Origin: a virus
Virus record (IMG/VR): IMGVR_UViG_3300013947_000375
Coordinates: 1 to 49,477 of that record
Length of the DNA stretch: 49,477 bases
Strand: one strand, 5' to 3'
Positions 6,601 through 49,300 of this stretch are shown in pieces. The notes under the pieces were generated by a model. That model had not been told where the DNA came from, did not search any database, and saw only the letters and a program-made list of their open reading frames with translations. How positions within the stretch are numbered: position 1 is the stretch's first letter; each line of letters starts with the position of its first letter. The position numbers and the translations under genes were made by a program.

Positions 6601-8130
6601 ATGGTCGATATTGAAAGAGTGGATGTGGTGGCTTCTGGCCTTCGCATTCCCTATAGCCTTATCTCTGGGGAGCTAGAAGGTCTGTATGGATCCCGAGTTC
6701 TGGCTGAGATGGCTGAGATCATCGGATATTACGATGTATATGAACGGGGGGCTCAGTTCAAGTCCGAGGGATCCAGAAGTGACTATGTTCCTTCGAACCT
6801 AAGATTTAAACAGGCCTCTTCCCTTATCAATAAAGAGGCTCGTTTTCTCTTTTCCCATTCTCCCGATTTGTGGGTAGAGATTCCACACGATGAGAAAGAC
6901 CATGAGCAGGCTATGGTTCAGGGCTCTATTCTCCAAACTCTGGTGGATAACGTTCTTTCCCAGAATCATTTCCGCTCAAAATTGCTAAAGGCAGCTAAAG
7001 ACTGCTTCATCGGCAAGCGTGTGGCCTACTTTGTTAACTTCGATGAAGAGAAGCAGACCATTAAGGTTAATTTCATTCCTTCTTTGGAGTTCGTATACGA
7101 GACTGATGAAGATGATAGTGACCTTATCACCAAGATTGTGGCCTTTTATACTGTCATTGATTCCAAGACCAAGGCAGATCAAAGAATCTACAAGAAGAAG
7201 TACTGGATGAATAGTGGTTACTGCTGGATCAATGAGGCCATTTATGATGGTCTGGGAACTCTCATCGATGAGATTACCCCTGATAGACCTACTAAGTTTA
7301 ACTATATTCCCGCTGGGGTCATAGTGAATGATGGTCTAACCGGGGATATGCTTGGTGAGTCGGAGATCTCTAACCTAGAAGAGTTTGAGAGCTGGTTTTC
7401 TCGACTGTCCAATGCTGATATGGATGCTGAGAGACAGGGAATGAACCCTGTACGATGGGCTAGGGATATGAATCCTGAATCCACTAAAAACCTATCTATC
7501 GCAGCTGGTGCCTTTTGGGATCTTTCCACAGACCAGAACTCTGCTGAGGGGGTAACTGGTGAAGTTGGTGTTCTGGAAACCTCTATGAACTATACCAATG
7601 CCATTAGTTCCACTCTATCTCGAATCAAGTCCAGTATGTACGACACTGTGGATATGCCTGATGTGTCTCCTGAGGCCTTGAAGGGTGTAGTCTCCAGTGG
7701 CAAGACCCTAAAGGCTATTTACTGGGGCCTCATCGTTCGCTGTGATGAAAAGATGTTGGCCTGGAGACCCGCCCTAGAAAATATCGTAAAGATCATCATC
7801 GATGGGGCTAGGCTTTATCCTAATTCGGCTAAACCTTTTATTGAAGAGCCCATCCCCAATGTCCTCTTTGAGGTTAGGGTCGATAATCAGTACCCCCTGC
7901 CTGAGGATGAAGTGGAGGAGAAGCAAATTGACCTGGCTGAGGTTCAGGCTCAAACTATGTCCAAGAAGGCCTATATGAGAAAGTGGCGTAACCTCACTGA
8001 TGAGGAAGCGGATATGGAAATCAAACAGATTGCCCTGGAGAGACAAATTCTGGAGGATTCCTTTATGGGAATGGACTCTACTAACTCTATGGAGAATGAT
8101 GCTGAGGCTGAGGAGGTAATCAATGAATAA
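6601..8130 (+). CDS. portal protein (SPP1 gp6-like)
   Basis: size (509 aa), position after the terminase, acidic C-terminus, strong SD. Confidence 0.8.
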   Translation: MVDIERVDVVASGLRIPYSLISGELEGLYGSRVLAEMAEIIGYYDVYERGAQFKSEGSRSDYVPSNLRFKQASSLINKEARFLFSHSPDLWVEIPHDEKDHEQAMVQGSILQTLVDNVLSQNHFRSKLLKAAKDCFIGKRVAYFVNFDEEKQTIKVNFIPSLEFVYETDEDDSDLITKIVAFYTVIDSKTKADQRIYKKKYWMNSGYCWINEAIYDGLGTLIDEITPDRPTKFNYIPAGVIVNDGLTGDMLGESEISNLEEFESWFSRLSNADMDAERQGMNPVRWARDMNPESTKNLSIAAGAFWDLSTDQNSAEGVTGEVGVLETSMNYTNAISSTLSRIKSSMYDTVDMPDVSPEALKGVVSSGKTLKAIYWGLIVRCDEKMLAWRPALENIVKIIIDGARLYPNSAKPFIEEPIPNVLFEVRVDNQYPLPEDEVEEKQIDLAEVQAQTMSKKAYMRKWRNLTDEEADMEIKQIALERQILEDSFMGMDSTNSMENDAEAEEVINE

Positions 8131-8737
8131 GATCATTGTTCAGAAAGATCAAGCTCGGTTATATGGTCGACCTTACCCCATTCCCCAGGGTCAGTCTCAG
8201 TTCAGTGAGATTGAGTTCTCCTTTTCCGAAGAGTGGGCCAACCTGCGAAAGATTGCTCAGTTTGAGCAGAAGAGCGGCACATATAATGTCGATGTCTCCG
8301 ACAATAAGTGCTTCTGCCCGTCTGAGCTGGTCAAAGGCTGGGTAAATATTCGGGTCAAGGGTTATCCTGAAGACACGACCTCCCCCGTTATCGCTACAGC
8401 GAATGAAATCATCCTCCCCGTTTCTGTGGGCTTTAAGTCCGGTGGAACTCCCCCGGTTCCCCCTACTCCTGATTTGTATCAGAAGCTTGTTGAGGAGTTT
8501 TCTGATAAAGTCCAGTCAGACTGGAATCAGAATAACCCTAATGCAAAGGATTATATCAAGAACCGTACACATTGGGAGGATTCTGATGGGGGTGTTCATA
8601 CACTGGACGAAAAGTATTTAAGCCTTGTAGACGGGTATCAAGCCATTAAAGATCTTTCAGAGTTTGGTATAGTAACCCCTGCATATCAAGATGAGGTTAT
8701 GTATATCTCTCTAGAACGAGAAATTTACATCTTATAA
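8123..8737 (+). CDS. hypothetical virion-associated, fibre-like protein
   Basis: ORF with GAGGAGG SD; SDWNQNNPNAKDYIKNRTHWE motif of the kind seen in phage fibre proteins (recognition from memory only). Confidence 0.6.
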   Translation: MNKIIVQKDQARLYGRPYPIPQGQSQFSEIEFSFSEEWANLRKIAQFEQKSGTYNVDVSDNKCFCPSELVKGWVNIRVKGYPEDTTSPVIATANEIILPVSVGFKSGGTPPVPPTPDLYQKLVEEFSDKVQSDWNQNNPNAKDYIKNRTHWEDSDGGVHTLDEKYLSLVDGYQAIKDLSEFGIVTPAYQDEVMYISLEREIYIL

Positions 8738-8749
8738 AGGAGTGATATT

Positions 8750-9193
8750 ATGGCGGAATTTAAGTTCAAGAACCTCAATCAAATTGATACAGTAGAGAAT
8801 CCTGCTGAAGGTACAACCATAATGGGGTTTGAAAATGGTAACCCTATTCAAATGCCTATGAGTGCTGTAAGGGGTTCCGGTGGAGTATTTGTCATTAATC
8901 CCCAAGATGATGAGTTTAGTACCACCGATACTTCCTATGGTGATAAGGTTTTGGCTGCTTTACAAAGTGGTAAAACTGTATACTACTACTTTGACGAATA
9001 CAGTGGGGTTTATTCCCAAATTAGGGGGTTTTGGCTTCAGAACAATAGTGGGGATTGGAGTGTAGGGGTAATTCCTGAATTCCAACAATATCAGTCTTCA
9101 GGGGTTGATGAGGTAAGATATAATGGCGTAGGGAATACATGGATTGCGAATGGTGACTATACCTCCTTTGCAATTACCCCTTTGGTGACTTGA
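8750..9193 (+). CDS. hypothetical protein (147 aa)
   Basis: ORF with AAGGAG SD. Confidence 0.65.
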   Translation: MAEFKFKNLNQIDTVENPAEGTTIMGFENGNPIQMPMSAVRGSGGVFVINPQDDEFSTTDTSYGDKVLAALQSGKTVYYYFDEYSGVYSQIRGFWLQNNSGDWSVGVIPEFQQYQSSGVDEVRYNGVGNTWIANGDYTSFAITPLVT

Positions 9194-29353: not shown

Positions 29354-30901
29354 TCAAGATTTTTTCCAGAGGTTCTTCATAAGCTTGGTCTTGACTCTGA
29401 TGTTTTCGGCTATATCTTCATCTACGGTTCCCTCACACATCAGAACCACAACTTCCATTCGGTTCTTTTGGCCAGGTCTTTTGATTCGGGAGATAGCCTG
29501 CCAATAATCATCCGCACTGTGGTTAGTACTATAGAACATGACCGCATTTGCGGCCTGAAAATTTAGCCCTGTACTTCCCGAGTGTACTTGAAGTATAACT
29601 ATGTCTACCTTTCCCTTTTTGAAATCACTCTCGATCTTTTCCTTATTCCCTGAGTCCCGATAATTCTCAATTCTCTTCTTAGGGAAGGCTTTCTTCAGTT
29701 CCCTTTCTAGTAACCTTATTTCATCTACAAAGTTACAGAACACCACTGTGGGGAGGGTTCTCTCCCTTAGATAGTCTATAGCTAAGTTTAGCTTATCCCT
29801 ACCCATAGGAACTAGCTCCCCACTATCTAGCCTTAAGAATCCCCCCGTAAGTTGATGAAGCCTTATGAGCTTAGTAATTGTTAGGTCACAGGAAGCCACA
29901 TTTAGAAGGGACTCAGCTTTCAGAAGGAGAGATAGGTAATTTTCCCGGGGAGAGTAATCTATGTGGTTCTGCCTCAGAATGACTTTTAGACGACCTCTGG
30001 TGGCCTCTAGGGGTATCTGGGTATATAAGTCCTCATAGAGCTCTCCATACGCCCTCTGGGCATTTTCTGTGAGCTCACAGGTAAGATAGCGAATGTCCAG
30101 GGGGGGAAGGTCAATACAGTTCTCAATCTCCACTCGATAAGAGGTATTAGCTACTATGTCTTTAAGCTCATCTATATTCTGATACCCAACTATCTCTTTT
30201 CCCATATACCCCCCTTTGCGAATATACTGGGACTCGAAGTCTTTATAATCCCCCCCGAAGATCTCAGAATTCATGATCTTGTACTGCATAAATAGGTCTT
30301 CATATCCCTTCCCAATGGGGGTTCCACTCATTAGGAGTCGAGTAGAGCATCCCCTAGTAAGTCGATATATGGCCTTAGAGACCTGGGTATTCCTACCCTT
30401 AATTCTCTGGCTTTCATCCACAATGAGGGACTGTATCTTCATCCTTCTGAGCTCCGGCTCTAGTATCCTAGCTTTCTCATAGTTCACAAGAAGTATCATC
30501 AGGGGAGCCTTATGCCCTCTTACAATGTCCTTCTTTTTGGTTCCTAGTCCTAGTTCCTTAAGCTCGTCTAGGGTCCTTAACTCATAGTCGTATTTTAGAA
30601 AGTCATTGAGTTGATTCACCCAGTTTTTCTTTCCTTTCCCCTTCAGTCTCAGAACCTTGATCTCACTTCGGGAAAGCCAAGCCCACTCCTTAAGCTCCAG
30701 AGTCCAGTTGTAGAGAAGGTTATTGGGGGCAAAAACCACTACTCTATGGAGCCCTAGCCTCTTATACCTCTCCACTGTGGCTCTAATGGCTACTGCCGTT
30801 TTCCCGGTCCCCTGGTCCATAAACAAGGCGAAGAAGGGCTCCTGTAGAACCCTCCTTACGCCTTCTCTTTGGTGGGGATAGAGGTTATTCCTCTTCGCCA
30901 T
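29354..30901 (-). CDS. SNF2-family helicase/ATPase
   Basis: GTGKT Walker A, DESQRIKG (DExx box), helicase C motifs STGLNFQAANAVMFYS and QAISRIKRPGQ; ATG 30901 after GAGGAGGA is preferred over TTG 30931. Confidence 0.85.
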   Translation of the reverse strand: MAKRNNLYPHQREGVRRVLQEPFFALFMDQGTGKTAVAIRATVERYKRLGLHRVVVFAPNNLLYNWTLELKEWAWLSRSEIKVLRLKGKGKKNWVNQLNDFLKYDYELRTLDELKELGLGTKKKDIVRGHKAPLMILLVNYEKARILEPELRRMKIQSLIVDESQRIKGRNTQVSKAIYRLTRGCSTRLLMSGTPIGKGYEDLFMQYKIMNSEIFGGDYKDFESQYIRKGGYMGKEIVGYQNIDELKDIVANTSYRVEIENCIDLPPLDIRYLTCELTENAQRAYGELYEDLYTQIPLEATRGRLKVILRQNHIDYSPRENYLSLLLKAESLLNVASCDLTITKLIRLHQLTGGFLRLDSGELVPMGRDKLNLAIDYLRERTLPTVVFCNFVDEIRLLERELKKAFPKKRIENYRDSGNKEKIESDFKKGKVDIVILQVHSGSTGLNFQAANAVMFYSTNHSADDYWQAISRIKRPGQKNRMEVVVLMCEGTVDEDIAENIRVKTKLMKNLWKKS

Positions 30902-31469
30902 CCTCAGTTTCCTCCTCAGGAACCTCAGCAACAGAGGACTTCAGGGAAGTAATGGCCACAGCTACCTTAGCCTTGGGGAAACTATTGATAGTGGAGATTA
31001 GCTTCTCCCGGTTGGACTTGGGGTGGGCAGTTCCCCCCAGCTCAGAAATGATCTTAATAAGCTGTTTCTTGGTTAGATCATCCAGAGGGCCTTTCTCCTG
31101 GGCCTCAGCTTTTTCGACAGCAGCAGTAGCTTTGTCCTTATCCTTAGACTTCTTCCGCTTCTTCTTAGGCTTCTCCTCAAGAGAAGTAGAGGTAGCTCCC
31201 AGTTCGATGAGGAACATGTTGGAGTAGTTTGCCAGATCGGTTAGAGTGTCCACCAGAGACTCCCCATTGGAATCATCCAGACCAGCTCGAACCAGGGCCT
31301 TTACTCGGTTGAGCTTATCCTCCAGTCGAATAATTGCCACTGTGGGACCATACTCCGAAAAGGTCTTACCGAAGGCATCATCATATTTTTCATTCTTTTC
31401 CGAGTACAGAGCTTCCTGCTGAGAATGCAGAGTCTTTAGAATTTGGAGCTTTTCCTTGGTGCTAGCCAT
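30885..31469 (-). CDS. DUF1599-like (nucleotide-modification-associated helical domain) protein with K-rich linker and HeH-like C-terminus
   Basis: EKNEKYDDAFGKTF...IRLEDKLNRVKAL...ESLVDTLTDLANYSNMFLIEL fits the DUF1599 KN.DYG / DK..R / DL.NY pattern (from memory). Confidence 0.45.
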   Translation of the reverse strand: MASTKEKLQILKTLHSQQEALYSEKNEKYDDAFGKTFSEYGPTVAIIRLEDKLNRVKALVRAGLDDSNGESLVDTLTDLANYSNMFLIELGATSTSLEEKPKKKRKKSKDKDKATAAVEKAEAQEKGPLDDLTKKQLIKIISELGGTAHPKSNREKLISTINSFPKAKVAVAITSLKSSVAEVPEEETEDGEEE

Positions 31470-34633: not shown

Positions 34634-37081
34634 TTATTTATTCAAGGAGTTTAAATAGTCTTGAATTTCCTGTTTCCAGGTATCATCTCCAGGATCCATA
34701 TGAAGCTCCTTACCTGCTCCCCAGGATTGTCCTATGGCTACATCCGCCACAATAGGAACATCGCTTTCGAAATGAAAAACTTCCTCTAGGGCTTTAGGGT
34801 GTTCTAGGATGTGTTTTGCCCTAGGGCAGAACTCCATTAAGTAGTCATTCCTTACCTCAAACAGGGTAGCATCATGAACAGTTCCTATAACGAAAAACTT
34901 ATCTTTGTCTAGCTTATAAGCTGGGTCATAGTACTGGGCATTTCCCATTATCTCGGACATTCCTAAGATGGTTAGGTCTGAGCCAAATCCCTGGACCGGT
35001 GAATTTATACTCTGTCTTTCAGCTTCAGCCTTCTTGGACTTGTCTGTGGAGTATATATCGGGAAGTCTCCGTATTCTCCCTATGGGACTCCTTACTTGGC
35101 CTATGGACTGGACTATTCTTCTTTGCTTAGAGTGCCATTTAGGTAGAGAATGGTAGGTTTCAAAAAACTTTCCCCGCCATTGCTCAGCTTCTTTATCGGT
35201 AAGATCTACCCCATAGTTATCTCGAGCGTATATCTTGAACTTTCTCCAGCCCATCCCATAGACGAATCCAAAGTTAACAGCCTTGGCCTTCTTTCTCTGT
35301 TCCTTTCGAATGTACTTATCATCCGAGACCTTCTCCCCAGTTATCATCTCAAAGGTGTGGGTGTGAATATCCCCGCCCGTTTGATAGATCCTCTTCATGG
35401 TCTCATCCCCAGACATTATGGCGGCTATTCTAAGTTCAGCTTGGGAATAGTCTATCTCTACCACAGACCAGCCTTCAGGGGCTCCTACTAGATTTCGGAT
35501 AATGGGATCCCGGGGAACTTGTTGAAGATTGGGATCAGTACAGGAGGTTCTCCCTGTTACAGTTCCATGGAGTTTAAAATTAGGAAATAGTCTTCTACCC
35601 CACATACGGTTGATCCACCCATCTATAAAATGAGAGATCTGTATATTCACCCCACGATACTTAAGGATAAGTTCCACTATGGGATGTTTATCCCTTAATT
35701 GCATTAAGGTAGCCTCACTTGTAGAGGGGGCTCCTGATTCGGTTCTCTCCAAAATAGGAAGTTTTAGTTCCCCATAGAGTAGCTTTTGGATCTGGGCCGG
35801 AGAGTTCCAATTGACCTCGTGTCCAGCTAGCTTAATGAGCTGTTTCTCTATTTTGGACTTCTCAGACTCCAGATGCTTTCTTACCTGTTTGAACTGTTGT
35901 GGATAGATAAACACCCCATGTTCTTCTACGGTCTCATAGGATATAATTCCCGGCATATAAAGGTGGTAGAAGAGTTTCATAAGGGCTCTATCTTGCTTTA
36001 ATTTCTTATGGAATACTTTATAGAGCTTATACTCATAGTAGACATCGTATCCCAAATAGGTAAGATACTCTTGATACTTCCCCCGGGTCTGGTATTGCCC
36101 CGTTTTCAGGGACTTATCGACATCCCACTCGGGGGCATTACATTCCAGAGCTGCATTCTCCTTAACACCATTGGGGGTATTCTCGTTGAGAATATGGGAG
36201 GCGAGCACTACGTCGAATGTAATATGGGGTTTAGTCCCAAAATGGTATTGAAGGAATAGATCATCAAACTTTCCATTACCAGCCACAAGAGCTTTAGCGT
36301 TAGTATTTAGCCACTTTATGCAGGCCCTTATAATTTTCCTTTGGGCCAGTCTTGCGCCCTTCAGCGGGCTGTAATTGGCCTCTAAGGGAATGATATATTG
36401 AACCTTATCATTTCCAAACCCAAATAGGTTGATCTCGTCCTCAAACCTAACTAGTCCTGTGGTCTCTATATCATAGCTCAGGTATAGATAGTCATTCTTA
36501 ATTAGGTGTTGAAAGGCCCTTCTCAGTTGTCTCATATTGGTGATAAGTCTAACATCCAGTTCTGGAAGTCCCTCTAGCTCTCCCTCTATCATAGCTTTGA
36601 AATTATTCATAGCCTTATCCACAAAGGGGGCCTTTCCCGGGTCTCGATAAACTACTCCCGGACTATAGGAGGGCATATACTTAATTCCACCCTTCTCAAC
36701 CATAATTCCATTGAGCTCCGTAATAGAGCCATCCACAGTTGCTTTAAGGGCCTGAGCCCCTAGAAGTAGAACAAACTGGGGTTTTACCTGAGCTATCTCT
36801 TGATCAAGATGAACTTTACATTTCTTAATATCCCCCACCTTGAACTTGGTACCCCTAGGGCAGGCACACTTGATAGCATTGGTGTAGTAAATCTTCTCAG
36901 GGTCTATTCCTATCTCCCGAAGTCTTTCTATGAGAGAGGACGGCATCACTGCCGCCCCCATCTCTTCATCATGCTCAGTAGCATAACTGTTTATGACCAT
37001 AACTTTAGCCTCGGGACTCCCAGAGCCCCAGATGCAAGAGGGATCTGAGAAGGAACAAAGGTTACAGTTATTACAGGTCAT
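34634..37081 (-). CDS. family A DNA polymerase (3'-5' exo + pol) with N-terminal UDG family-4-like domain
   Basis: exo motif YLSYDIETTGL; pol motifs DYSQAELRIAA, KAVNFGFVYGMG, VHDATLFEV; N-terminus CNNCNLC...WGSGSPEAKVMVI...NAIKCACP resembles family-4 UDG. Confidence 0.9.
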   Translation of the reverse strand: MTCNNCNLCSFSDPSCIWGSGSPEAKVMVINSYATEHDEEMGAAVMPSSLIERLREIGIDPEKIYYTNAIKCACPRGTKFKVGDIKKCKVHLDQEIAQVKPQFVLLLGAQALKATVDGSITELNGIMVEKGGIKYMPSYSPGVVYRDPGKAPFVDKAMNNFKAMIEGELEGLPELDVRLITNMRQLRRAFQHLIKNDYLYLSYDIETTGLVRFEDEINLFGFGNDKVQYIIPLEANYSPLKGARLAQRKIIRACIKWLNTNAKALVAGNGKFDDLFLQYHFGTKPHITFDVVLASHILNENTPNGVKENAALECNAPEWDVDKSLKTGQYQTRGKYQEYLTYLGYDVYYEYKLYKVFHKKLKQDRALMKLFYHLYMPGIISYETVEEHGVFIYPQQFKQVRKHLESEKSKIEKQLIKLAGHEVNWNSPAQIQKLLYGELKLPILERTESGAPSTSEATLMQLRDKHPIVELILKYRGVNIQISHFIDGWINRMWGRRLFPNFKLHGTVTGRTSCTDPNLQQVPRDPIIRNLVGAPEGWSVVEIDYSQAELRIAAIMSGDETMKRIYQTGGDIHTHTFEMITGEKVSDDKYIRKEQRKKAKAVNFGFVYGMGWRKFKIYARDNYGVDLTDKEAEQWRGKFFETYHSLPKWHSKQRRIVQSIGQVRSPIGRIRRLPDIYSTDKSKKAEAERQSINSPVQGFGSDLTILGMSEIMGNAQYYDPAYKLDKDKFFVIGTVHDATLFEVRNDYLMEFCPRAKHILEHPKALEEVFHFESDVPIVADVAIGQSWGAGKELHMDPGDDTWKQEIQDYLNSLNK

Positions 37082-37809
37082 TAGAATACTCCCTCCACGT
37101 CCTTATTGTATACATGCAGGGAGAAGATAGTGTGGGTAAAACTCCCCACAGGGTAGCCGGTTTTCTCAGCCACCCACTCCAGAAATCGAATGGCCAGGTA
37201 GACATCATTTCGAAAATGGGTAGCGAAGTCACAGGATCTCATTACATAGTGCAGATTGAGCTTCCCATCACGAACCTGAAGGCCATACCCCAGGGAACAG
37301 GGAACTCGAGAAATACCCCCCAAGAAGTTAGGATCTCTGGTGGGACTCCAAAGACTAATCCACAGTTGGCGAGAGTCAGGATCTTCCTTTAGACGATTGA
37401 TGATCTTAGTTACCTGGTCATTATTCCAGATGAGCTCGTTGTAGGTATAGGCCATTTTACCTTCGTGTAGATATTCGGTCCATACCTCTTTGCGTAGCTC
37501 CCAGGCCTTTCCAGGATTAAGAAAATGGGGGGAAAGGTAGTTAGCCTGACCATCAGAAGTACGGTTCCAAGGGTCAGTTACCCTCTCCTTGAACTCAGCA
37601 TCGGCCCAAGGCTGAGTAACCCCAGGAATGTCCTGGCTCTTGGCGTCGAGCAGACAGTAAGAATAATTCTGGAGCTCCCTAGTCTCGTAGTCAGGATTTC
37701 CTTTGACATACTTGTCCTGCATAGTGGCAGGTCTTACCACAATGCCCATCTCAGCAAGGTCCCGTTTGGTCTCCTCGATCATTTCCTCAGCATTAATGTA
37801 GATTCTCAT
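37081..37809 (-). CDS. thymidylate synthase (ThyA)-fold pyrimidine C5 transferase; candidate dCMP/dUMP hydroxymethylase or methylase
   Basis: RVPCSLGYGLQVRDGKLNLHYVMRSCDFATHFRNDVYL...SLHVY parallels the ThyA PCH...QRSCD...PFN...DxHxY core. Confidence 0.7.
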   Translation of the reverse strand: MRIYINAEEMIEETKRDLAEMGIVVRPATMQDKYVKGNPDYETRELQNYSYCLLDAKSQDIPGVTQPWADAEFKERVTDPWNRTSDGQANYLSPHFLNPGKAWELRKEVWTEYLHEGKMAYTYNELIWNNDQVTKIINRLKEDPDSRQLWISLWSPTRDPNFLGGISRVPCSLGYGLQVRDGKLNLHYVMRSCDFATHFRNDVYLAIRFLEWVAEKTGYPVGSFTHTIFSLHVYNKDVEGVF

Positions 37810-37812
37810 AGA

Positions 37813-38556
37813 TTATACCTCCAGTTCAAAGTCTTTATAGGTTATAGGTTCAAAAACCTTTCCCTCTCGGAGAGCATTAGCCACATCTTGCATTTTTTGA
37901 GCCGGGCTAAGTTTCTGGCGGGGGGAATTCTCTTGATAGTATTTATCATTGCGGTACCGAATAATTTTCCAATAGGGGTGAGACTCGGGATCTAGGTCTT
38001 CCATTCTTACTCCGAAGACAGATTCTACCAAGGGTATAACATACATCCCCGATTGATAGGCACTAGTAATGAAAAACTCGATACTAGAGAATTGGGAGTT
38101 GGGAACTTTGGAGAGTAAATGGTGTAGAAGTATAAGATCAGCGGCCCATCGCTTTTGCAACTCTGTAGCTCTCCAAATAACTGTGGCTTTGGTCCAGGGT
38201 TTTTTTCTACTATGCCTGGTAAGGATAACCTCCCTCATACAAGACCCGTTACCTGTATTCTTTCTCTTGAAATCGAAAGCTAGGGATATTCCTTTGGAAA
38301 TTTCACATAAATGGTAAAATTCCCTAAGTTTATCCCGGTCAATATAGGTTTTAACCAGATGATCCCATTTTCTAGAGGAGTACCCCAGGGGGGCTAGGTC
38401 CACTTTATCACAGATTATACTGTCGATTGTGATAAATAGGTCCTCTATGACCCCCCTGGTATTCTCCAGGTAATTTATCTGGTCGGGATGGAGAAGAATG
38501 TCCCTATTTAGATGAAAATAGGCCTCACTAAAATCTTTATAGTGTTTCTTCAGCAT
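37813..38556 (-). CDS. divergent second ThyA-fold-like paralog
   Basis: GSCMREVILTRH...ATVIWRATELQKRWAADLILLHHL has the same spacing as the Cys-strand / RS.D segment of the neighbour; weak. Confidence 0.35.
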   Translation of the reverse strand: MLKKHYKDFSEAYFHLNRDILLHPDQINYLENTRGVIEDLFITIDSIICDKVDLAPLGYSSRKWDHLVKTYIDRDKLREFYHLCEISKGISLAFDFKRKNTGNGSCMREVILTRHSRKKPWTKATVIWRATELQKRWAADLILLHHLLSKVPNSQFSSIEFFITSAYQSGMYVIPLVESVFGVRMEDLDPESHPYWKIIRYRNDKYYQENSPRQKLSPAQKMQDVANALREGKVFEPITYKDFELEV

Positions 38557-38569
38557 CCAGCTCCCCCCC

Positions 38570-39226
38570 TTAGTAATTACTTCTCTGGCGGAACATGTTA
38601 ACCTGAGACTTCTTCAGGTATACCTTAGCTATGCCTTCGGCATCCATACCAGAGACTACCAGAATAGTAATATAACAAGCCCAGGCATTAGTCAGTCTAT
38701 GATAAAAAGCTTCTCTATCAGTCTTCATCATAGACTGCTTCCAGGGCTTATTCTTCAGGCAGTTGCACATCATAGCCAGCTGTTCGATGAAACTAGAGAC
38801 CCAGTAATTCAAGTTATGATTACGGTCCTCAATTAGATTTCGGGAATTCTCCACCAAGTCCTCCAAGTGGTCCTCACTATAAAGAAGGGGGATACCCGAG
38901 GGAATAATGGTATCGTAGTTCTTACCAGCCAGAATAGTCAGCTCAGTCAGAAAATGAAGACCATCAATAAGCTCCTCTTGATAATGGTCTGAGTTAGTTC
39001 TAGCATCAAGGGCCTCCCCAAGCTCCTCAGTAACCCTCCAGGAAAAGTCCTTGATACGGGCTTGCCCCCTCTTATCATCCAGATTCACCGGGCAGTCTTC
39101 GGTCTGAAGTAGTCCAGACTTTAGTTCAATGTCATGGTACTTACCCATTAGGGATCTCTGTCGGTCAAAAATAGCCTTAAGCAGATCACCCTCAACCTTC
39201 TCCTCTACGGCATGGTTAATATTCAT
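38570..39226 (-). CDS. all-alpha NTP pyrophosphohydrolase (dimeric dUTPase/dCTPase-like, MazG superfamily)
   Basis: LKAIFDRQRSLMGKY..., TEELGEALDA, ELIDGLHFLTEL pattern typical of dimeric dUTPases. Confidence 0.5.
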   Translation of the reverse strand: MNINHAVEEKVEGDLLKAIFDRQRSLMGKYHDIELKSGLLQTEDCPVNLDDKRGQARIKDFSWRVTEELGEALDARTNSDHYQEELIDGLHFLTELTILAGKNYDTIIPSGIPLLYSEDHLEDLVENSRNLIEDRNHNLNYWVSSFIEQLAMMCNCLKNKPWKQSMMKTDREAFYHRLTNAWACYITILVVSGMDAEGIAKVYLKKSQVNMFRQRSNY

Positions 39227-39699
39227 TACTTTTCCTCCATTTCTGTGGTATAGTCGTATACTCGAATATCCCAGCCTCTAGTCTTGAGTTTCCACATTAG
39301 GTCATCCCAAGCAGCCAGGAGCTTCTCCTTGGTTTTAATTACCCCCTCCATCTGTTCTCGATCCCCAAAGTTAAAAATAACCTCAGAGGGAGGTCTGGTA
39401 TATACGATGGTGGGATGGAGATCTTTCAGAGACTCCATATAAGGATCATCCAGAGAATAGATGGGATCCCCCCGAAGAACCTTTCCATAGACCATTTCCT
39501 CGAAGGGAAGGAATCTATCGAAAAGGGTAGAGTTGGGGAAAGACTTCTCCCGGGTCATTTGGTCCAAAAACCAGATATGCTTCTCATCCTTACTATGGTC
39601 AGGCCCCAAGGACTTAACCACCGGAAGGTTGAGAGTCTTGGACACTTCATTCACCAAAGTGGTTTTTCCCGAATTGTCCATGCCAGTGAAAATCAACAT
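39226..39699 (-). CDS. P-loop nucleotide kinase (thymidylate/dNMP kinase-like)
   Basis: Walker A GMDNSGKTT resembles Tmk G.DG.GKTT; 157 aa. Confidence 0.45.
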   Translation of the reverse strand: MLIFTGMDNSGKTTLVNEVSKTLNLPVVKSLGPDHSKDEKHIWFLDQMTREKSFPNSTLFDRFLPFEEMVYGKVLRGDPIYSLDDPYMESLKDLHPTIVYTRPPSEVIFNFGDREQMEGVIKTKEKLLAAWDDLMWKLKTRGWDIRVYDYTTEMEEK

Positions 39700-39744: not shown

Positions 39745-41709
39745 TTAGCGTTTGGGAATGGTGTAACCCTTATTCATGGGAACTATTCTCTTGGATTTTA
39801 GCAGGTTGTCTAAAACCTTACGAGTAGTTTCGAAATTGGAACCTAAACCCTCCTTTATGGCTCTTTTAGTAACTGGGACATTAGAGGTTCTTAGCATATC
39901 CACAACCTCGTCCTCTAGAGTTTTAATGGTAACATGAGGTTCTCCTGCTGCTCCCACAGTAACTCTATATCTGGGATTTCCAATTTCCCCCATTTCGAAA
40001 TGAATGTCTAGTTCCGGGTAATTACCCGCCATTCGAAACTCCCTGCTAAGAGTTATGGTGGAGGATCCTGAGGACTCAGCTAGATCTACTTCTCTATTTG
40101 GGGGGGTTTCTTCATCTTCGTCGGATTTGGTAAGATACCAAGCAGACTCTACCCAGCCATATAGCATCACAGAACCAGCCATTCTAGCTCCTCCCCGAAG
40201 AACCTGTTGATTGCTACCTTTGTTATAGTGATGAATAACCATAACACTAGTCTTATACTGGGTCTTAAGACTAAGCAGCCAGTTAAGTACGGGATTCAAC
40301 TCTTTCGAAGAATTAAGATCTCCATCGAACATTAGGTATAGGGGGTCGAAAACCACAAGTACAGGCTTAATCTCTTTAATGAGGGACTCAATCTGTCTCC
40401 TGTGGTCCTCATTACTGAGGGTAAATCCCTGTTGGTTTAAAAAGGTAATAGGGAGATCAGGGGGAAATTCTACATGTAATTTTTTGGAGGATATTCTTTC
40501 CACTTCTCCTACTAGCCCTCTATCTAAAATGACCTTTTCTGTTCGATCCTTCATAATGTAGTCAGCATTCTCATTCTGAACTACTATCACTGGACCGGGG
40601 TCTAAAACTTGAAACCTACCCAAAAAGGGCTGACCACTAGCTACAGAGATTATTAAATCATGAACTAGGGTGGACTTAAAACATTTTGGCATTCCGGCCA
40701 CTATTCCATGAGACCTTCGTCCCCAAAATCCCTTGACCAACCAGCCCTCAAAGGTATTGCAATTTCCCATAACCTCTTCATAGTTAGAGGTTTTCATGAG
40801 TCCTATTTCTTCCTGTCCCGGATCAGGTATCTCCCCCGAGATAATCTTCTCCAGCTCTTTTTGAATTCGGGAGTCTTCATCCCTTCTACCTTTGTACTTG
40901 TTAAAGACACTGTTCTTGATTAGATATATAATCTCTTGAGGGGTCATTCCTAGCTCATGTAAGGAGTTCTCTACAAACCAAATAGTTCCAGATCGATCTA
41001 CCCCATTTAGAGACTCTAGGGCTAGAAGGTCTCTTACCTTTTTAGGGATGGAGTACTTAGCATAGATCTTTCTCTCCATTATTGTGGCCTCTTTAGAGGC
41101 CTCTGAGGGGTTGCTGGGGACTTTTTCTGGGGGAGGGGTAGTAACTATACCCCCCACAGCTTTACGGAGATTCTTGGGCTTATAAATGACCTTAGTGGCC
41201 TTTGGCATTCCTACTCTGGGGGAGTTTCGGTATTTGTGATTAATAGTTCCGGGAATTCGATAGACATGGGCAAAATCGAAACAGTCATCACACCCTATAT
41301 GGGTGGCTAGGGCCTTATTAAGGGGGGTATATTCCTTTTCATCGATGTATCGATCCAACTCCCACAGACCTTGATACTTGTTGGGAGAACTTTCCCAGAT
41401 ATAACTAGGTTTAGGGTCCAAAGTGGAGGGATCTTCACACTCATCTATATCTTGGGCCATAAACTTAGTATCAACGGAGTAGGAATTTTGTCTCTTAGGA
41501 TGACTAAAGGGCATAGGAGACCAATAGAGGTCATATTCCCCAGGGGGATAGGATTCAAAAAACCCCCTAAGCTTCTTTCTAAGGTCCTTACCAAATCGAA
41601 GGGGGACATCCCTCCAAAACTTCCCGTTTCTGGCGGCCAAGATAATGTAGTCCCCTGGCTCACACTGTTGAGAGAAGATGTGATTTAGAAATTTGATGGT
41701 TTCTCTCAT
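39745..41709 (-). CDS. primase-helicase (N-terminal primase/polymerase-like domain, C-terminal RepA/AAA_25 RecA-fold helicase, wHTH tail)
   Basis: GMPKCFKSTLVHDLIISVASGQPFLG Walker A region; VVFDPL Walker B; N-terminal DIDECED...YQGLWEL. Confidence 0.7.
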   Translation of the reverse strand: MRETIKFLNHIFSQQCEPGDYIILAARNGKFWRDVPLRFGKDLRKKLRGFFESYPPGEYDLYWSPMPFSHPKRQNSYSVDTKFMAQDIDECEDPSTLDPKPSYIWESSPNKYQGLWELDRYIDEKEYTPLNKALATHIGCDDCFDFAHVYRIPGTINHKYRNSPRVGMPKATKVIYKPKNLRKAVGGIVTTPPPEKVPSNPSEASKEATIMERKIYAKYSIPKKVRDLLALESLNGVDRSGTIWFVENSLHELGMTPQEIIYLIKNSVFNKYKGRRDEDSRIQKELEKIISGEIPDPGQEEIGLMKTSNYEEVMGNCNTFEGWLVKGFWGRRSHGIVAGMPKCFKSTLVHDLIISVASGQPFLGRFQVLDPGPVIVVQNENADYIMKDRTEKVILDRGLVGEVERISSKKLHVEFPPDLPITFLNQQGFTLSNEDHRRQIESLIKEIKPVLVVFDPLYLMFDGDLNSSKELNPVLNWLLSLKTQYKTSVMVIHHYNKGSNQQVLRGGARMAGSVMLYGWVESAWYLTKSDEDEETPPNREVDLAESSGSSTITLSREFRMAGNYPELDIHFEMGEIGNPRYRVTVGAAGEPHVTIKTLEDEVVDMLRTSNVPVTKRAIKEGLGSNFETTRKVLDNLLKSKRIVPMNKGYTIPKR

Positions 41710-41793: not shown

Positions 41794-42360
41794 TTACTCC
41801 TTATCGTCCGCCTCCAGGGCCTTGACCATATCAGCCTTGGCCATTCCCTTGGTGACCTTGATGCCTCTGGTACGACACTCCTTCTTCAGATCCTTGAGAG
41901 CCCAGTCAGAGTAGTCCTCAGAGTCCTCATCGTCCTCATTGGATTCCTCCTCGAAATCCCCATCCTCATCATCTTCAGAGTCCTCATCGTCCTCGGGCTC
42001 AGCCTTCTTCTTAGACTTCTTAGAGGTCTTTTCCTTCTTAGACTTCTTAGGGGGCTTCTCCTCTTCCTCCTCCGGCTCCTTCGAATCATCGGAATCCTCC
42101 ATCATGGAGATCTCATTCTCATAAGCTCCCTTGATCTTATTCAGCGCCTCAGTCATGAGATCAGCAGCAGCTCTCAGAGACTCATCCACAGAAAGCGGGG
42201 CCTCTTCACCCGGCTGGCGGGAAATAAGCTCATCTGTGATTTTCAGAGCCTTATTGGTGGCCTTCTCATCCACCTCATCATCAGACAGGGTCTCCTTCAG
42301 CAGGGCCAGCAGATCAGGGGTCTCAGCCTCCAGAAACTTGGGCTTCTTGTTCTTAGCCAT
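41794..42360 (-). CDS. highly acidic protein with C-terminal HeH/SAP-like motif
   Basis: D/E/K low-complexity centre; C-terminal LKDLKKECRTRGIKVTKGMAKADMVKALE. Confidence 0.7.
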   Translation of the reverse strand: MAKNKKPKFLEAETPDLLALLKETLSDDEVDEKATNKALKITDELISRQPGEEAPLSVDESLRAAADLMTEALNKIKGAYENEISMMEDSDDSKEPEEEEEKPPKKSKKEKTSKKSKKKAEPEDDEDSEDDEDGDFEEESNEDDEDSEDYSDWALKDLKKECRTRGIKVTKGMAKADMVKALEADDKE

Positions 42361-42464: not shown

Positions 42465-43133
42465 CTATTCAGCTCTCTTGATATCCTCAAAAAATGCAGG
42501 ATAGTACATAACCAGGAGATCATAAACTTCTCCGGCCACCTCTACCATTTGGGGGTGTGGGGTACCGGCTACCCCTACCCATCTCATCTCCAAGAAATGT
42601 CTCCATTCTCTAACATTCATGGTAGCTACAATCTCGGTTTTAGTACTATTGGGTAGTACTGAACGAGCCTCCTCAGGGGTAGCCCCCAACTCGAGCATTT
42701 TCATATAGTGTCTTTCGGCATCACACATTGCACTCATCCACTCATTATATTTAGCCGTATCTTTTGGGTCATTTAGGTCATAATGAAACCCACTAGCCAA
42801 GTCAATGACTGTAATTTCACTTCCAAACTTTCCCTTGGAATAATTACAGTAACGAGTACTTTCCTGACAATATGAGGCCAGTCTATGTCGTACTAACTCA
42901 TGGGTTATTCCACGATCACAGACAATGCGGAGAGAAATATAGGCATGTTCTAGTACAGACCAATGTTTTCGTTTCATGAGCCTTTGGATAAATTTCTCTG
43001 TAGTATCTCCCTCTACCCTCTCTGACCGATAACAAGTTCTCCCTGCAGCCTCTACTAGAGAGTAAAGAGACTTTGGAGGAGGAAGGGGTTGATTAGGAAC
43101 AGCCGATACTACATAAGGGGTAATAATTTTCAT
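42465..43133 (-). CDS. thyX: FAD-dependent thymidylate synthase ThyX
   Basis: ThyX signature RHRLASYCQES (RHR..S....S) and 222-aa size. Confidence 0.9.
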   Translation of the reverse strand: MKIITPYVVSAVPNQPLPPPKSLYSLVEAAGRTCYRSERVEGDTTEKFIQRLMKRKHWSVLEHAYISLRIVCDRGITHELVRHRLASYCQESTRYCNYSKGKFGSEITVIDLASGFHYDLNDPKDTAKYNEWMSAMCDAERHYMKMLELGATPEEARSVLPNSTKTEIVATMNVREWRHFLEMRWVGVAGTPHPQMVEVAGEVYDLLVMYYPAFFEDIKRAE

Positions 43134-43681
43134 GTGTTTTCCTCCTGATAGTTAATATCAATTATAATATTCTTGCGAGAAGCAAGATAATCACAAATAT
43201 GAACGAAAGCTTGTAGAGTAGTCTTAGGCTGTGGAAGTTTTCCAAATTGATCCCACTTACCCATATGAGACTCAATTAAGGGAATTATCTCCTTAATAAT
43301 GTAGTAATAATCATCCATCAAAGGATCTAGAATGGCCTTAACCTCTATGGGGTGTAATTTACTGGGCTTGGCTATATCATGTAAAGCTAGGGCTGCCATG
43401 ACCAAGTCTTCTTCCTTTTCCGAAAGGTTATCAGTTTGAAATAGGGCTTTAGCCACTATCATAGCTGCCTTAGTATGTCTTACCAAACCCCCCACCCCAA
43501 GAGCATACCCCGGATGATACTTTCCCGAACTACTGGCGGGTTGAATAAAAAAGTCTATAGGAACACAAGACCTATAGGCTGATTCCACAAACTCAACATA
43601 ATCAGGACTGTGGAAAAATGATTCGAATGACATTAGGTTTATGGTCTGTTCGATTAGTTTGGTGTCTAAGGGTTCTATCAT
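43130..43681 (-). CDS. HD-domain phosphohydrolase
   Basis: SSSGKYHP...GGLVRHT...ALALHDIAKP (H...HD pattern). Confidence 0.6.
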   Translation of the reverse strand: MIEPLDTKLIEQTINLMSFESFFHSPDYVEFVESAYRSCVPIDFFIQPASSSGKYHPGYALGVGGLVRHTKAAMIVAKALFQTDNLSEKEEDLVMAALALHDIAKPSKLHPIEVKAILDPLMDDYYYIIKEIIPLIESHMGKWDQFGKLPQPKTTLQAFVHICDYLASRKNIIIDINYQEENT

Positions 43682-44042
43682 AGTTTTTCTCCTTTCTTAG
43701 TTTTAAAAGCTGTTGAGCCTTATTCATAATTTCCAAATTGCGAATGGGAAGATTAAAACCCGTACTACCATCAAAGCCTTGAAACTCCTCATCATAATCT
43801 ACTCGAGAAGATATGGCTGGATATTTCCTTTGAAGTTCTACTAGTTCTTTGGCCCATGTACTCCAGGTGGTGTCTAAAATCAGATTCTCATTAAACACAT
43901 AATAGATGCAGGAATGGACCAGGATTTGTAACCTCCTTCTAAGGATTAAGGCCCTAATGCTATCAGTCTCTACTCCAGCTTGAGTAAGGTAATATGTACC
44001 CCGAATGAGACTTGGGCTTATTTGAGTTTTAGATTTTCCCAT
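43602..44042 (-). CDS. hypothetical protein (146 aa)
   Basis: ORF with SD and own promoter; the 3' end overlaps the HD gene by 80 nt; the segment CIYYVFNENLILDTTWSTWAKELVELQRKYP loosely resembles the LigA Ia-domain pattern. Confidence 0.6.
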   Translation of the reverse strand: MGKSKTQISPSLIRGTYYLTQAGVETDSIRALILRRRLQILVHSCIYYVFNENLILDTTWSTWAKELVELQRKYPAISSRVDYDEEFQGFDGSTGFNLPIRNLEIMNKAQQLLKLRKEKNYDRTLRHQTNRTDHKPNVIRIIFPQS

Positions 44043-45169: not shown

Positions 45170-45708
45170 TTAGTTTTTCATGAGCCAGTCAGCCATAACA
45201 TTTAGATCCATAACTACCTTAGGATCCAAAGTGTAGATCCACTTCTTGGGGATCAAGTCAGCCCCAAAGCGAGCTCCTGCAATTCCTCCAGCCAGAGCGG
45301 CTATAGTATCTGCATCCCCCCCATGATTTACAGGTCCCAGAATAGCCCCACTGAAACTCCGGGTATGATGAGCCCAGTAGATAGCATTATTCACAGAATT
45401 TCTTACATGGCCCGTAGGGTCCTTAGGACCACCCTTAAGCCACTCCACAAACCCGGTACAGCAATTGGAGAGAAAATTCTCTTTGCCCTTCATACGGGCT
45501 TTGGCCACAATGGTCATCATCTGGGTATCATCAGTTACTTCTCCCGGATTCAGGAAAAGCCACCCACCCCCAGAATATCAGTAACTTCTCCATATCGGGA
45601 CTGAATTTGGTCCTGGGTCATGAATTCTGTGGTTGCCCCCATGGCATCCCCAATAGCGAAGCCCAATAGGGAACCAAGGATACGATTGCGATTCTTAGTA
45701 TTTGTCAT
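45170..45708 (-). pseudogene. compact ADP-ribosylglycohydrolase (DraG/ARH family) interrupted by a frameshift at a G5 run
   Basis: frame A (45708-45550): MTNTKNRNRILGSLLGFAIGDAMGATTEF...; frame B (open from 45577): GGGWLFLNPGEVTDDTQMM...GGDADTIAALAGGIAGARFG; the frames overlap at 45550-45577 around the C5/G5 run 45567-45571. Confidence 0.75.
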
Positions 45709-47965: not shown

Positions 47966-48284
47966 CTTGCATTCTCCTTTTAGATATGTTCATAAGTTGC
48001 CTCCAATATTTAGGCATTTTATTTCTACAAATGGCCAATTCTCGTTCTGTGAGTTCTCCCCCATATTTAAGTCGAAGAGCCAGAGCAGTCATCATCTCAG
48101 CATCTACAGCCCCAAAGCCAACCCCATTATGATCAATTGTGGCCCCATAGGCTTTCTCCTCTGGGGTTTGTAAGTCGGCTATAAGGGTGATTGCCCTATA
48201 GAGAGCTTTCTTGTTGGTTCGAAGTAGATTCTGGAGATATTCTTTCCATTGGTTCTGATTTGTAAATTGTTCCCATGGCCTCAT
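47949..48284 (-). CDS. hypothetical protein (111 aa)
   Basis: ORF, ATGA-coupled to the upstream gene. Confidence 0.65.
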   Translation of the reverse strand: MRPWEQFTNQNQWKEYLQNLLRTNKKALYRAITLIADLQTPEEKAYGATIDHNGVGFGAVDAEMMTALALRLKYGGELTERELAICRNKMPKYWRQLMNISKRRMQDERQI

Positions 48285-49300
48285 TCACCATCATCTCCTG
48301 ACTGCCACTCTTCCCCTGTAACCTCTTTCCAGATTTTAGGACCAAGACCGGTCTCAATCTCATCACCATTCGATCGAATAGTCTGAACTATCTCATAGGG
48401 ACTATTTACCACGATCTCTTGACCAAATTCCTGGGAGTAAATCTCTACTAGGCCTTTACTCATTTTGATGTGGTGTCTTCCTATGTACTGAATAAGATCG
48501 AGACCCTCTATGGGAAGGGGTTCTTTCTTCCTTTTTCTAGAGGGCCTTTTTGGGAAATCCTCACTCGTTTTAAGAAGTGTTCCTATCTGAGAAGAGGGTT
48601 CCATTCCAAACTTACGATATAGAGATCTAACTTCTCTACTAGTGACTAAGGGAAACTTCTTTACTAAGTCCTTTAAGCCGTTAACCAGTCCTATCTCCCT
48701 ATGGTAGAAAATGGCTCCCTGTACTTTCCCATTTGGGCTATAGTGTTTACCAGCTGCCTCAAAGTCCTCTAGGTCAAAATCTGTATATTCCCCACTGATT
48801 TCTACAGGGGTATACTTATTCTGATTGTTCCACGAGTAAGCTTGCCCAATAGTATAGGTATTAATTTCCCCGAAAAGGTATAAAGCCAGTCCCGCCACAT
48901 CCGCAGTTACTACATTCCCGAAGCGATAGTAATATACCCCAGAATTTTTTTGATTGGTCTTTAAACCCTTCCTCTTAGATTTTTTCATTGGGGGGGTATA
49001 TTTACCCACTATTTCAAAATCTGGAGTTATTCTCAAAGAGTTATGAGGATCATAAGCCATCTGAAATTTTCCCTCTTTGAATTGAATATAAGCTCTTCCC
49101 CTCTGCTGTATAGCTCTAAAGAGATACTCATCCCAATTAGAGGACAGCCCAGGCCCTGAGAGAAGGTCCCTTTTAACTCTCCTCATTTGAAAGTCCCAGG
49201 GGTTTTCTTTACCTTCTCGAACCTCAAAGACATTACCTTCCCCAAGATCCAAAAGCTCCCACATAATTTGGTTTTTATTATATGGTATCCATTCCTTCAA
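48281..49300 (-). CDS. hypothetical protein (339 aa), first gene of the leftward early arm
   Basis: TTG start after AAAGGAG; no recognisable motif. Confidence 0.65.
   Translation of the reverse strand: MKEWIPYNKNQIMWELLDLGEGNVFEVREGKENPWDFQMRRVKRDLLSGPGLSSNWDEYLFRAIQQRGRAYIQFKEGKFQMAYDPHNSLRITPDFEIVGKYTPPMKKSKRKGLKTNQKNSGVYYYRFGNVVTADVAGLALYLFGEINTYTIGQAYSWNNQNKYTPVEISGEYTDFDLEDFEAAGKHYSPNGKVQGAIFYHREIGLVNGLKDLVKKFPLVTSREVRSLYRKFGMEPSSQIGTLLKTSEDFPKRPSRKRKKEPLPIEGLDLIQYIGRHHIKMSKGLVEIYSQEFGQEIVVNSPYEIVQTIRSNGDEIETGLGPKIWKEVTGEEWQSGDDGE

Follow-up and report, generated by a model that had tools for sequence, protein, structure and literature searches.

The 49,477-nucleotide viral sequence held in IMG/VR as record IMGVR_UViG_3300013947_000375 (analysed over its full length and referred to below as the window) contains, within positions 37081-39699, four adjacent open reading frames (ORFs), all on the minus strand. 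An initial annotation had read their products, here designated P1 to P4, as a T4-like set of enzymes for replacing or modifying a pyrimidine. The ORF listing gives all four exactly where they had been reported. In transcriptional order they are:

39226-39699, minus strand: P4, 157 amino acids (aa), a small P-loop nucleotide kinase, probably of YorR/Tmk-like type
38570-39226, minus strand: P3, 218 aa, an all-alpha nucleoside triphosphate (NTP) pyrophosphatase of the dUTPase_2 family
37813-38556, minus strand: P2, 247 aa, a divergent, basic ThyA-superfamily protein (phrog_34294)
37081-37809, minus strand: P1, 242 aa, a ThyA homolog (PF00303)

The stop of P4 overlaps the start of P3 by 1 nt, and gaps of 13 nt and 3 nt separate P3 from P2 and P2 from P1, respectively.

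P1 matches the Pfam family Thymidylat_synt (PF00303) with E=1.2e-18, in agreement with its earlier description as a ThyA-fold enzyme. Its residues were placed through HMMER alignment to thymidylate synthase (TS) structures (6auj) and through MAFFT alignment with Escherichia coli ThyA, the T4 deoxycytidine monophosphate (dCMP) hydroxymethylase, RB69 gp48 and the TS homolog of Xanthomonas phage Xp12; the T4 sequence was checked residue by residue against PDB entry 1b49. The register of the catalytic half is identical in all HMMER and MAFFT alignments. P1 contains the motif MRSCD...FRND, and in every alignment its Asp202 corresponds to E. coli ThyA Asn177, so that the proposal of an Asp within FRND at this position survives proper alignment. 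The remaining correspondences with E. coli ThyA are Cys171 to Cys146, Arg191-Ser192 to Arg166-Ser167, Asp194 to Asp169, Trp110 to Trp80, Tyr123 to Tyr94, Arg147 to Arg126 and Arg168 to Leu143. No mapped residue varies across an alignment of 41 members, among which is a gut-phage clade only 40-47% identical to P1.

Published work treats several of these positions as diagnostic. Replacement of Asn177 by Asp marks specificity or preference for dCMP (PMC13326640, PMC8670742, 10.1101/2024.12.05.627091), while replacement of Asp169 by Asn marks the flavin-dependent synthases of 5-hydroxy-dCMP (PMC13326640). RB69 gp48 has Asn at the former Asp169 and Ala at Trp80; P1 keeps both Asp169 and Trp80, which points to a folate cofactor. 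By the published markers P1 is thus predicted to be cytosine-specific and not a 5-hydroxycytosine (5hoC) synthase, and it is probably folate-dependent. It is also no typical TS: the best-scoring NCBIfam TS equivalog reaches 69 bits against a cut-off of 174, and all the TS equivalog models lie far below their cut-offs. The nearest fold to the AlphaFold model of P1 (predicted local distance difference test, pLDDT, 84) is that of the CMP hydroxymethylase MilA, with a template modelling (TM) score of 0.76; TS and AfhB come next. Proteins of the P1 clade are acidic, their median isoelectric point (pI) being 5.3.

P1 lacks the C-terminal tail of TS, ending after an HVYNKD motif, 10 residues past the His of HVY. 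In TS that tail closes the active site for hydride transfer. Searches of the window by phmmer with E. coli FolA and the Xp12 dihydrofolate reductase (DHFR), which are of limited sensitivity, found no DHFR-like ORF at E<=10. Because P1 has no tail and no DHFR was detected, hydroxymethylation is favoured over methylation. We predict that P1 modifies dCMP at C5 in a folate-dependent reaction, most likely as a hydroxymethylase. It is unlikely, in our estimation, that the same pathway instead yields 5-methyl-dCMP as in Xp12, with P1 acting as a dCMP methyltransferase and the virion carrying 5-methylcytosine (5mC) in place of cytosine. Such a product would be compatible with the Asp at position 177, which methylases and hydroxymethylases have in common, with the presence of a deaminase-family gene, as in Xp12-type phages, and with the failure of Pfam and PHROG scans to find a hydroxyl-using transferase in the window. 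It would also suit the lack of an acidic residue at E. coli position 143 in P1, Asp or Glu there being correlated with hydroxymethylation and present in the published hydroxymethylases and hydroxylases (PMC13326640). The methylase of Xp12, however, has Asn rather than a hydrophobic residue at this position, and the marker is for that reason not decisive either way for P1. Three observations speak against a methylated product: the Xp12 enzyme has the C-terminal tail and a flanking DHFR gene, P1 neither; a shortcut from 5-methyl-dCTP to dTTP would be unnecessary given the ThyX encoded in the window (see below); and in one phage IspD and LicD genes accompany a P1 ortholog. This ortholog, 45% identical to P1, is found in the human-gut phage DP SC_6_H4_2017 (MT121964.1), where the IspD-like and LicD genes follow it. 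A transferase pair of this kind needs a hydroxyl acceptor. The gene row of that phage suggests phospho-alcohol hypermodification on a hydroxylated cytosine.

P2 has no Pfam or NCBIfam match and is recognised only by phrog_34294, an entry without assigned function. Its family comprises 278 representatives at E<=1e-3 in an exhaustive profile search of 1.84 billion proteins, and none of the 102 representatives scanned matches a Pfam TS model. That it is a second, divergent ThyA-fold paralog, as had been proposed, is upheld by two lines of evidence, structure prediction and a weak profile-profile alignment. In Foldseek searches the AlphaFold model (pLDDT 93, predicted TM score 0.90) matches only ThyA-fold proteins in the PDB, with TM scores of about 0.5. 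The top match is AfhB, the dCMP hydroxylase of phage HY126 (9iqu, E=2.5e-7), and MilA, the T4 dCMP hydroxymethylase and TS follow; AfhB (9iqu/9iqc) is also the only PDB sequence match of P2. The nearest BFVD models are uncharacterised phage proteins with TM scores of 0.7-0.77, one of them from Pseudomonas phage PMBT14. Comparison of the 102-member P2 profile with ThyA by hhalign gave a weak alignment (probability 20%, E=1e-3) in which Cys106 corresponds to E. coli Cys146, Arg129 to Arg166, Glu132 to Asp169 and Asp140 to Asn177. On this weak register P2 has kept the nucleophilic Cys and the phosphate-binding Arg and, like P1, carries the cytosine-specifying Asp at position 177; forced hmmsearch alignments to the T4 dCMP hydroxymethylase, P1, RB69 gp48 and the Xp12 TS homolog reproduce the register. 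A narrow P2 alignment yielded nothing against ThyA sequences in hhalign and, used as a query, retrieved only close relatives; the broad alignment contains no sufficiently conserved stretch.

Among the 102 representatives, Lys63 is conserved in 100%, Asp140 in 98%, Arg129 in 97% and Cys106 in 96%, Tyr59, Tyr71 and Phe96 are each at least 93% conserved, and Glu132 is retained in 83%, the remainder having Asp or Gln. The N-terminal helix of P2 shares the sequence NREIL with RB69 gp48 and AfhB (23.7 bits for the hidden Markov model, HMM, of the P2 family against RB69 gp48), and this is the only sequence-level link of P2 that stands by itself. When the order of secondary structure elements is compared, helix B of P2 leads straight into the helix preceding the dimer-interface strand; P1 has around 50 residues after helix B, carrying Trp80 and Tyr94 (E. 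coli numbering), and this folate-binding segment is missing in P2. Conversely, P2 bears some 70 additional C-terminal residues, forming helices, relative to P1. An equation of the P2 segment LGYSSRKW with the TS motif VYGKQW (Tyr94) was withdrawn, as both the RB69 gp48 alignment and the order of elements put the segment at TS helix B. With a pI of 8.8, and a median of 9.15 for its family, P2 is basic. On these models and alignments we take P2 to be a real but very divergent member of the ThyA superfamily. It has probably kept the ability to attack or bind a cytosine nucleotide and probably makes no TS-style use of folate; basic and lacking the Trp80/Tyr94 segment, it is predicted not to be simply a second dCMP hydroxymethylase.

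With few exceptions, a P2 gene has the NTPase gene on one side and the P1 gene on the other. Some gut phages have two P2 paralogs ahead of P1, and a few short contigs carry a P2-like gene without an adjacent P1. P2 most likely acts together with P1. A more radical proposal is that the two jointly make a cytosine derivative not so far described, or that P2 modifies cytosine within the polymer. Here the Cys of P2 could re-activate 5-hydroxymethyl-dCMP, eliminating water and adding another nucleophile or hydride; alternatively, P2 could act on DNA or RNA, as its basic charge suggests. Several features fit with this: the family has retained Cys, Arg and Asp (96-100% of members), lacks the folate segment and bears extra C-terminal helices; its median pI contrasts with that of the P1 clade; P2 is tightly coupled to P1, and some phages carry two P2 paralogs besides P1; and its N-terminal helix is common to RB69 gp48 and AfhB, which use flavin instead of folate. 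Since, on the other hand, there is neither a precedent nor a cofactor prediction, the alignments of the catalytic half are weak (the hhalign probability of 20% given above), and the basic charge could simply mean pairing with the acidic P1, we regard this proposal as possible yet doubtful.

The resemblance to AfhB raises the question of whether P2 might be an O2- and flavin-dependent dCMP 5-hydroxylase like RB69 gp48 and AfhB, giving 5-hydroxycytosine. The top Foldseek and sole PDB sequence matches, together with the HMM score on the RB69 gp48 N-terminus, would favour it. P2, however, has Glu at the diagnostic 169 position, lacks a segment that RB69 gp48 retains, and is accompanied by no detected glycosyltransferase. 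The likely host is a further obstacle. The closest isolates infect Clostridium perfringens, a strict anaerobe. Sporulation-type genes are also carried by the window. Its products from 2902-3483 and 823-1371, a Spo0A C-terminal domain protein (E=2.7e-36) and a sigma-70/extracytoplasmic function-type sigma factor, suggest that sporulation or transcription of a Firmicute host is manipulated by the phage; a SleB-type hydrolase is encoded as well. The host probably belongs to the Clostridia and is hence probably an anaerobe, which argues against O2-dependent hydroxylation. With Glu at position 169 and a probably anaerobic host, we rejected this role for P2 as most improbable.

P3 matches Pfam dUTPase_2 (PF08761; E=8.6e-12, 46.1 bits against a cut-off of 22.9) and phrog_12184 (E=4.8e-46). 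The dCTPase/dUTPase of T4, gp56, also exceeds the PF08761 cut-off, with 25.4 bits, and aligns weakly with the P3 C-terminus (pairwise E=1e-4). The assignment of P3 as an all-alpha dUTPase/dCTPase-like NTPase is thus confirmed by shared Pfam family membership with gp56, and P3 is predicted to be a dCTPase (and dUTPase), removing dCTP and feeding dCMP. For P4, described initially as a Tmk-like P-loop kinase with a parallel in the T4 dNMP kinase gp1, a YorR/Tmk-like identity is probable, while a specific likeness to gp1 is not demonstrable. It matches phrog_761, 'thymidylate kinase', with E=2e-13, has no match to Pfam Thymidylate_kin, and contains a P-loop and a DRF motif. The latter is common to P4 and YorR (2axp), its best PDB sequence match, but at E=0.64. 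The P4 orthologs share the motifs G.DN[SA]GKTT, DR and VYG..R with RB69 gp45, a member of the 5hoC cluster that its authors list as a 'nucleotide kinase' of YorR/Tmk-like type (PMC13326640). The predicted role of P4 is to convert the modified dCMP into its diphosphate.

The genes recur widely as a cassette that begins with the kinase, continues with dUTPase_2 (or a different NTP pyrophosphatase) and ends with the P2-like and P1-like genes. We found it in close and distant metagenomic relatives (labelled L003, L004 and L023), in ten C. perfringens phages (the genes are CPD4_72-75 in phage CPD4), in Pseudomonas phage PMBT14 (gp50-47) and in Mycobacterium phage Muddy (gp49-46), HMM scans agreeing for the last two. 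It is also present in a further genome (L015) with an unrelated backbone bearing RecA, a trimeric dUTPase and dCMP deaminase. The order is therefore kept on unrelated phage backbones and across hosts of three phyla. The same PolA neighbour is seen in L003, L023, CPD4, PMBT14 and Muddy. In PMBT14 and Muddy, the ThyA homologs combine Asp at position 177 with Arg at 143 and lack the C-terminal tail. In the searched literature we found no description of the extra ThyA-superfamily gene and its cassette spread over phages of three bacterial phyla, nor any publication that reports or tests for modified DNA in these phages, among them the CPD4-like ones, PMBT14 and Muddy. Muddy encodes in addition an odd QueC-like PP-loop protein, reported by Hutinet et al. 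2019. In MT121964.1, positions 2685-9048 encode in a row a trimeric dUTPase-like protein, a dUTPase_2 protein, two P2-like paralogs of 329 and 261 aa, a P1-like protein, an IspD-like cytidylyltransferase and a LicD phosphotransferase. One close relative, IMGVR_UViG_3300045988_141547, has a second, weaker ThyA-family match at 1179-2018, about 4 kb upstream of the cassette, which may be a true ThyA in place of ThyX.

Other genes of the window that bear on replication or nucleotide metabolism are the following:

34634-37081, minus strand: fusion polymerase of uracil-DNA glycosylase (UDG), 3'-5' exonuclease and PolA domains, 815 aa (PF03167, PF01612, PF00476)
39745-41709, minus strand: primase-helicase ORF, at the upstream end of the operon
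42465-43133, minus strand: ThyX flavin-dependent thymidylate synthase (PF02511, E=9.5e-47)
43130-43681, minus strand: HD-domain phosphohydrolase (PF01966, E=3e-9; phrog_5889)
1617-2147, plus strand: dCMP/dCTP deaminase-family protein (NCBIfam ComEB, E=7.7e-33; anti-phage dCTP deaminase, E=9e-28)
30885-31469, minus strand: DUF1599 ('nucleotide modification associated domain 1') protein (PF07659, E=2.2e-5; phrog_1485, E=8e-24)

The deaminase, ThyX, HD and DUF1599 genes that had been noted elsewhere in the genome are thereby all recovered, the DUF1599 match lying right at the PF07659 gathering score (25.1 bits against 25). The polymerase gene lies directly downstream of P1, its start overlapping the P1 stop by 1 nt, and is in the same operon as P1-P4. 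The primase-helicase has approximately 68% DNA identity with its counterpart in C. perfringens phages, and RepB_primase and AAA_25 domains are present in the L004 homolog. The HD gene, which occupies the same position in L004, encodes a possible nucleotide-pool enzyme.

ThyX supplies dTMP, and an ordinary TS role for P1 or P2 would therefore be redundant, in line with what had been argued from its presence at the outset. The deaminase-family protein is predicted from its sequence to supply dUMP for ThyX. Replacement of thymine by 5-hydroxymethyluracil, which the initial annotation had left open, was rejected in view of the Asp at position 177 and the presence of ThyX. A wholly conventional account, in which there is no DNA modification and the TS, dUTPase and Tmk homologs serve salvage or housekeeping by raising dTTP and excluding uracil, would accord with the annotation of homologs as 'thymidylate synthase', 'dUTPase' and 'thymidylate kinase', and the UDG domain on the polymerase would fit uracil exclusion. 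We nevertheless consider it very improbable: Asp invariantly replaces Asn177, the TS equivalog models all score far too low, and three pyrimidine C5 enzymes, one of them ThyX, would be redundant in a 49-kb genome.

The reading that we prefer, on sequence and by analogy with T4, is that the cassette is a pre-replicative nucleotide-pool module swapping dCTP for a C5-modified dCTP, with 5-hydroxymethylcytosine (5hmC) as the most likely product and 5mC as the chief alternative. We think this rather probable; that the base is 5hmC specifically is a narrower claim, to which we give somewhat less than even credence. In such a pathway P3 would hydrolyse dCTP (and dUTP) to the monophosphate. Cys171 of P1 would then attack C6 of dCMP, the methylene of methylenetetrahydrofolate would pass to C5, and the intermediate would most likely be hydrated to 5-hydroxymethyl-dCMP, because P1 is without the TS tail and the phage without a detected DHFR. 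P4 would make the diphosphate and the host nucleoside diphosphate kinase the triphosphate, which the adjacent UDG-PolA polymerase would incorporate. Separately, dTMP would be formed from dCMP through the deaminase and ThyX. P2 may be a hetero-oligomeric partner of P1, or may catalyse a second step in which C6 of the modified cytosine is activated again.

Several points weigh against this pathway. All its steps are inferred from sequence and structure models, the DNA chemistry being a prediction, and the specific role given to P2 is a guess. Arg168, at the position of E. coli Leu143, is neither Asp nor Glu, and is invariant in the clade. In the replication and early modules, scanned with Pfam and PHROG, no glycosyl-, carbamoyl- or other group-transferase came to light. 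The dUTPase_2 family includes plain dUTPases, which bears on the substrate of P3. Finally, Muddy and the C. perfringens phages are routinely sequenced and handled, and we found no report of modified DNA in them; 5hmC or 5mC would not stop Illumina sequencing. Palindrome and restriction-site statistics are uninformative on modification: no palindromic 4-mer is strongly avoided relative to Markov expectation, observed/expected ratios ranging from 0.62 to 1.32. CpG tetramers are rare in absolute terms, with 24 occurrences of CGCG and 40 of ACGT on both strands of the whole window.

Some features of the surrounding genome were noted in passing. The UDG-superfamily domain at the PolA N-terminus begins with a Cys-rich stretch, MTCNNCNLCSFSDPSC. 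A 2025 preprint tied UDG-PolA fusions to phages carrying modified thymidines; the present fusion occurs alongside a predicted cytosine module. Positions 43602-44042 encode, as a stand-alone protein of 146 aa, the NAD+-binding N-terminal domain of a DNA ligase (Nlig-Ia). This gene and the beginning of the HD gene have about 80 nt in common; either HD translation really starts at a later codon, or translation of the two is coupled. Positions 41794-42360, which separate the primase-helicase gene from that of ThyX, encode a highly acidic, lysine-rich 188-aa protein (phrog_2250). A 339-aa protein (48281-49300) has no Pfam or PHROG match. A 116-aa ORF (45170-45520) shows similarity to ADP-ribosylglycohydrolase at the C-terminal end alone (PF03747 positions 228-286) and may represent part of a gene or one disrupted by a frameshift. 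Four tRNA genes cluster at 3615-4021 (Met-CAT, Gly-TCC, Gln-TTG and Leu-TAG), and a 164-aa ORF overlapping them (3658-4152) is probably spurious.

If the cassette does replace cytosine, there exists a broad, unrecognised set of phages with modified DNA, and it would include both Muddy, which is used therapeutically against Mycobacterium abscessus on a compassionate basis, and C. perfringens phages developed for poultry biocontrol. Host range would be affected, since modified DNA evades restriction and CRISPR yet is sensitive to Type IV systems and DNA glycosylases; so too would sequencing and engineering behaviour and immune sensing. P2 would in that event represent a new, basic branch of the ThyA superfamily lacking the folate segment. 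The superfamily has so far given methylases, hydroxymethylases and, recently, flavin-dependent hydroxylases, and a new branch could provide new nucleotide chemistry and tools for epigenetic sequencing. That P2 forms a new clade working with a P1-type enzyme on an undescribed cytosine derivative, or on cytosine in nucleic acid, the cassette then marking modification in many siphophages, is a suggestion we advance only tentatively. The interest of the system rests mainly on its direct testability in phages already in culture.

Comparison with characterised systems shows P1 to be a close member of none of the phage types considered, namely T4 gp42, RB69 gp48/AfhB and the Xp12 TS homolog. The Xp12 dCMP methyltransferase module, consisting of a TS homolog, dCMP deaminase and DHFR, resembles the present one in the Asp at position 177, in Asp169 and in having a deaminase-family gene. 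It differs in the full C-terminal tail of its TS homolog and the adjacent DHFR, both without counterpart here, and in the absence of ThyX, dUTPase_2 and P2-like genes from the Xp12 region examined. MilA, from mildiomycin biosynthesis, is a cytosine-specific ThyA-fold hydroxymethylase, as P1 is predicted to be, and the best structural neighbour of the P1 model (TM 0.76), but is a bacterial enzyme of secondary metabolism, acts on CMP, and has Asp at the Leu143 position (PMC13326640). With the 5-hydroxy-dCMP synthase cluster of RB69 and HY126 (PMC13326640; 9iqu, 9iqc), P1 shares Asp at position 177 and the lack of a TS tail, P4 shares its motifs with the YorR/Tmk-like kinase gp45, and P2 shares the NREIL helix, AfhB being its best structural match. 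The Asn169 of that cluster is, however, absent here, with Asp in P1 and Glu in P2; P1 keeps Trp80 and so is probably folate-dependent; and in the present phage, whose host is probably an anaerobe, no arabinose or sugar-activation genes and no glycosyltransferases were found.

The resemblance to T4 extends to a dUTPase_2-family NTPase, a dedicated kinase, a separate route to dTMP with a dCMP deaminase, the location of the genes in the replication module, and a ThyA-fold enzyme having Cys146, Asp169, Asp at position 177 and the same FRND motif. Against this, P1 is only around 25% identical to gp42 and gives a better score with TS than with gp42; its residue 143 is Arg rather than Asp, and it lacks a C-terminal extension. 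The kinase is probably of YorR/Tmk-like type, ThyX provides dTMP instead of the ThyA-type Td, no glucosyltransferases were found, and the ThyA-superfamily gene P2 is extra. The backbone, moreover, is a 49-kb siphovirus-type genome with PolA. Functionally, the predicted system would follow the logic of T4 on a small siphovirus-type genome, with ThyX standing in for Td and a YorR-like kinase.

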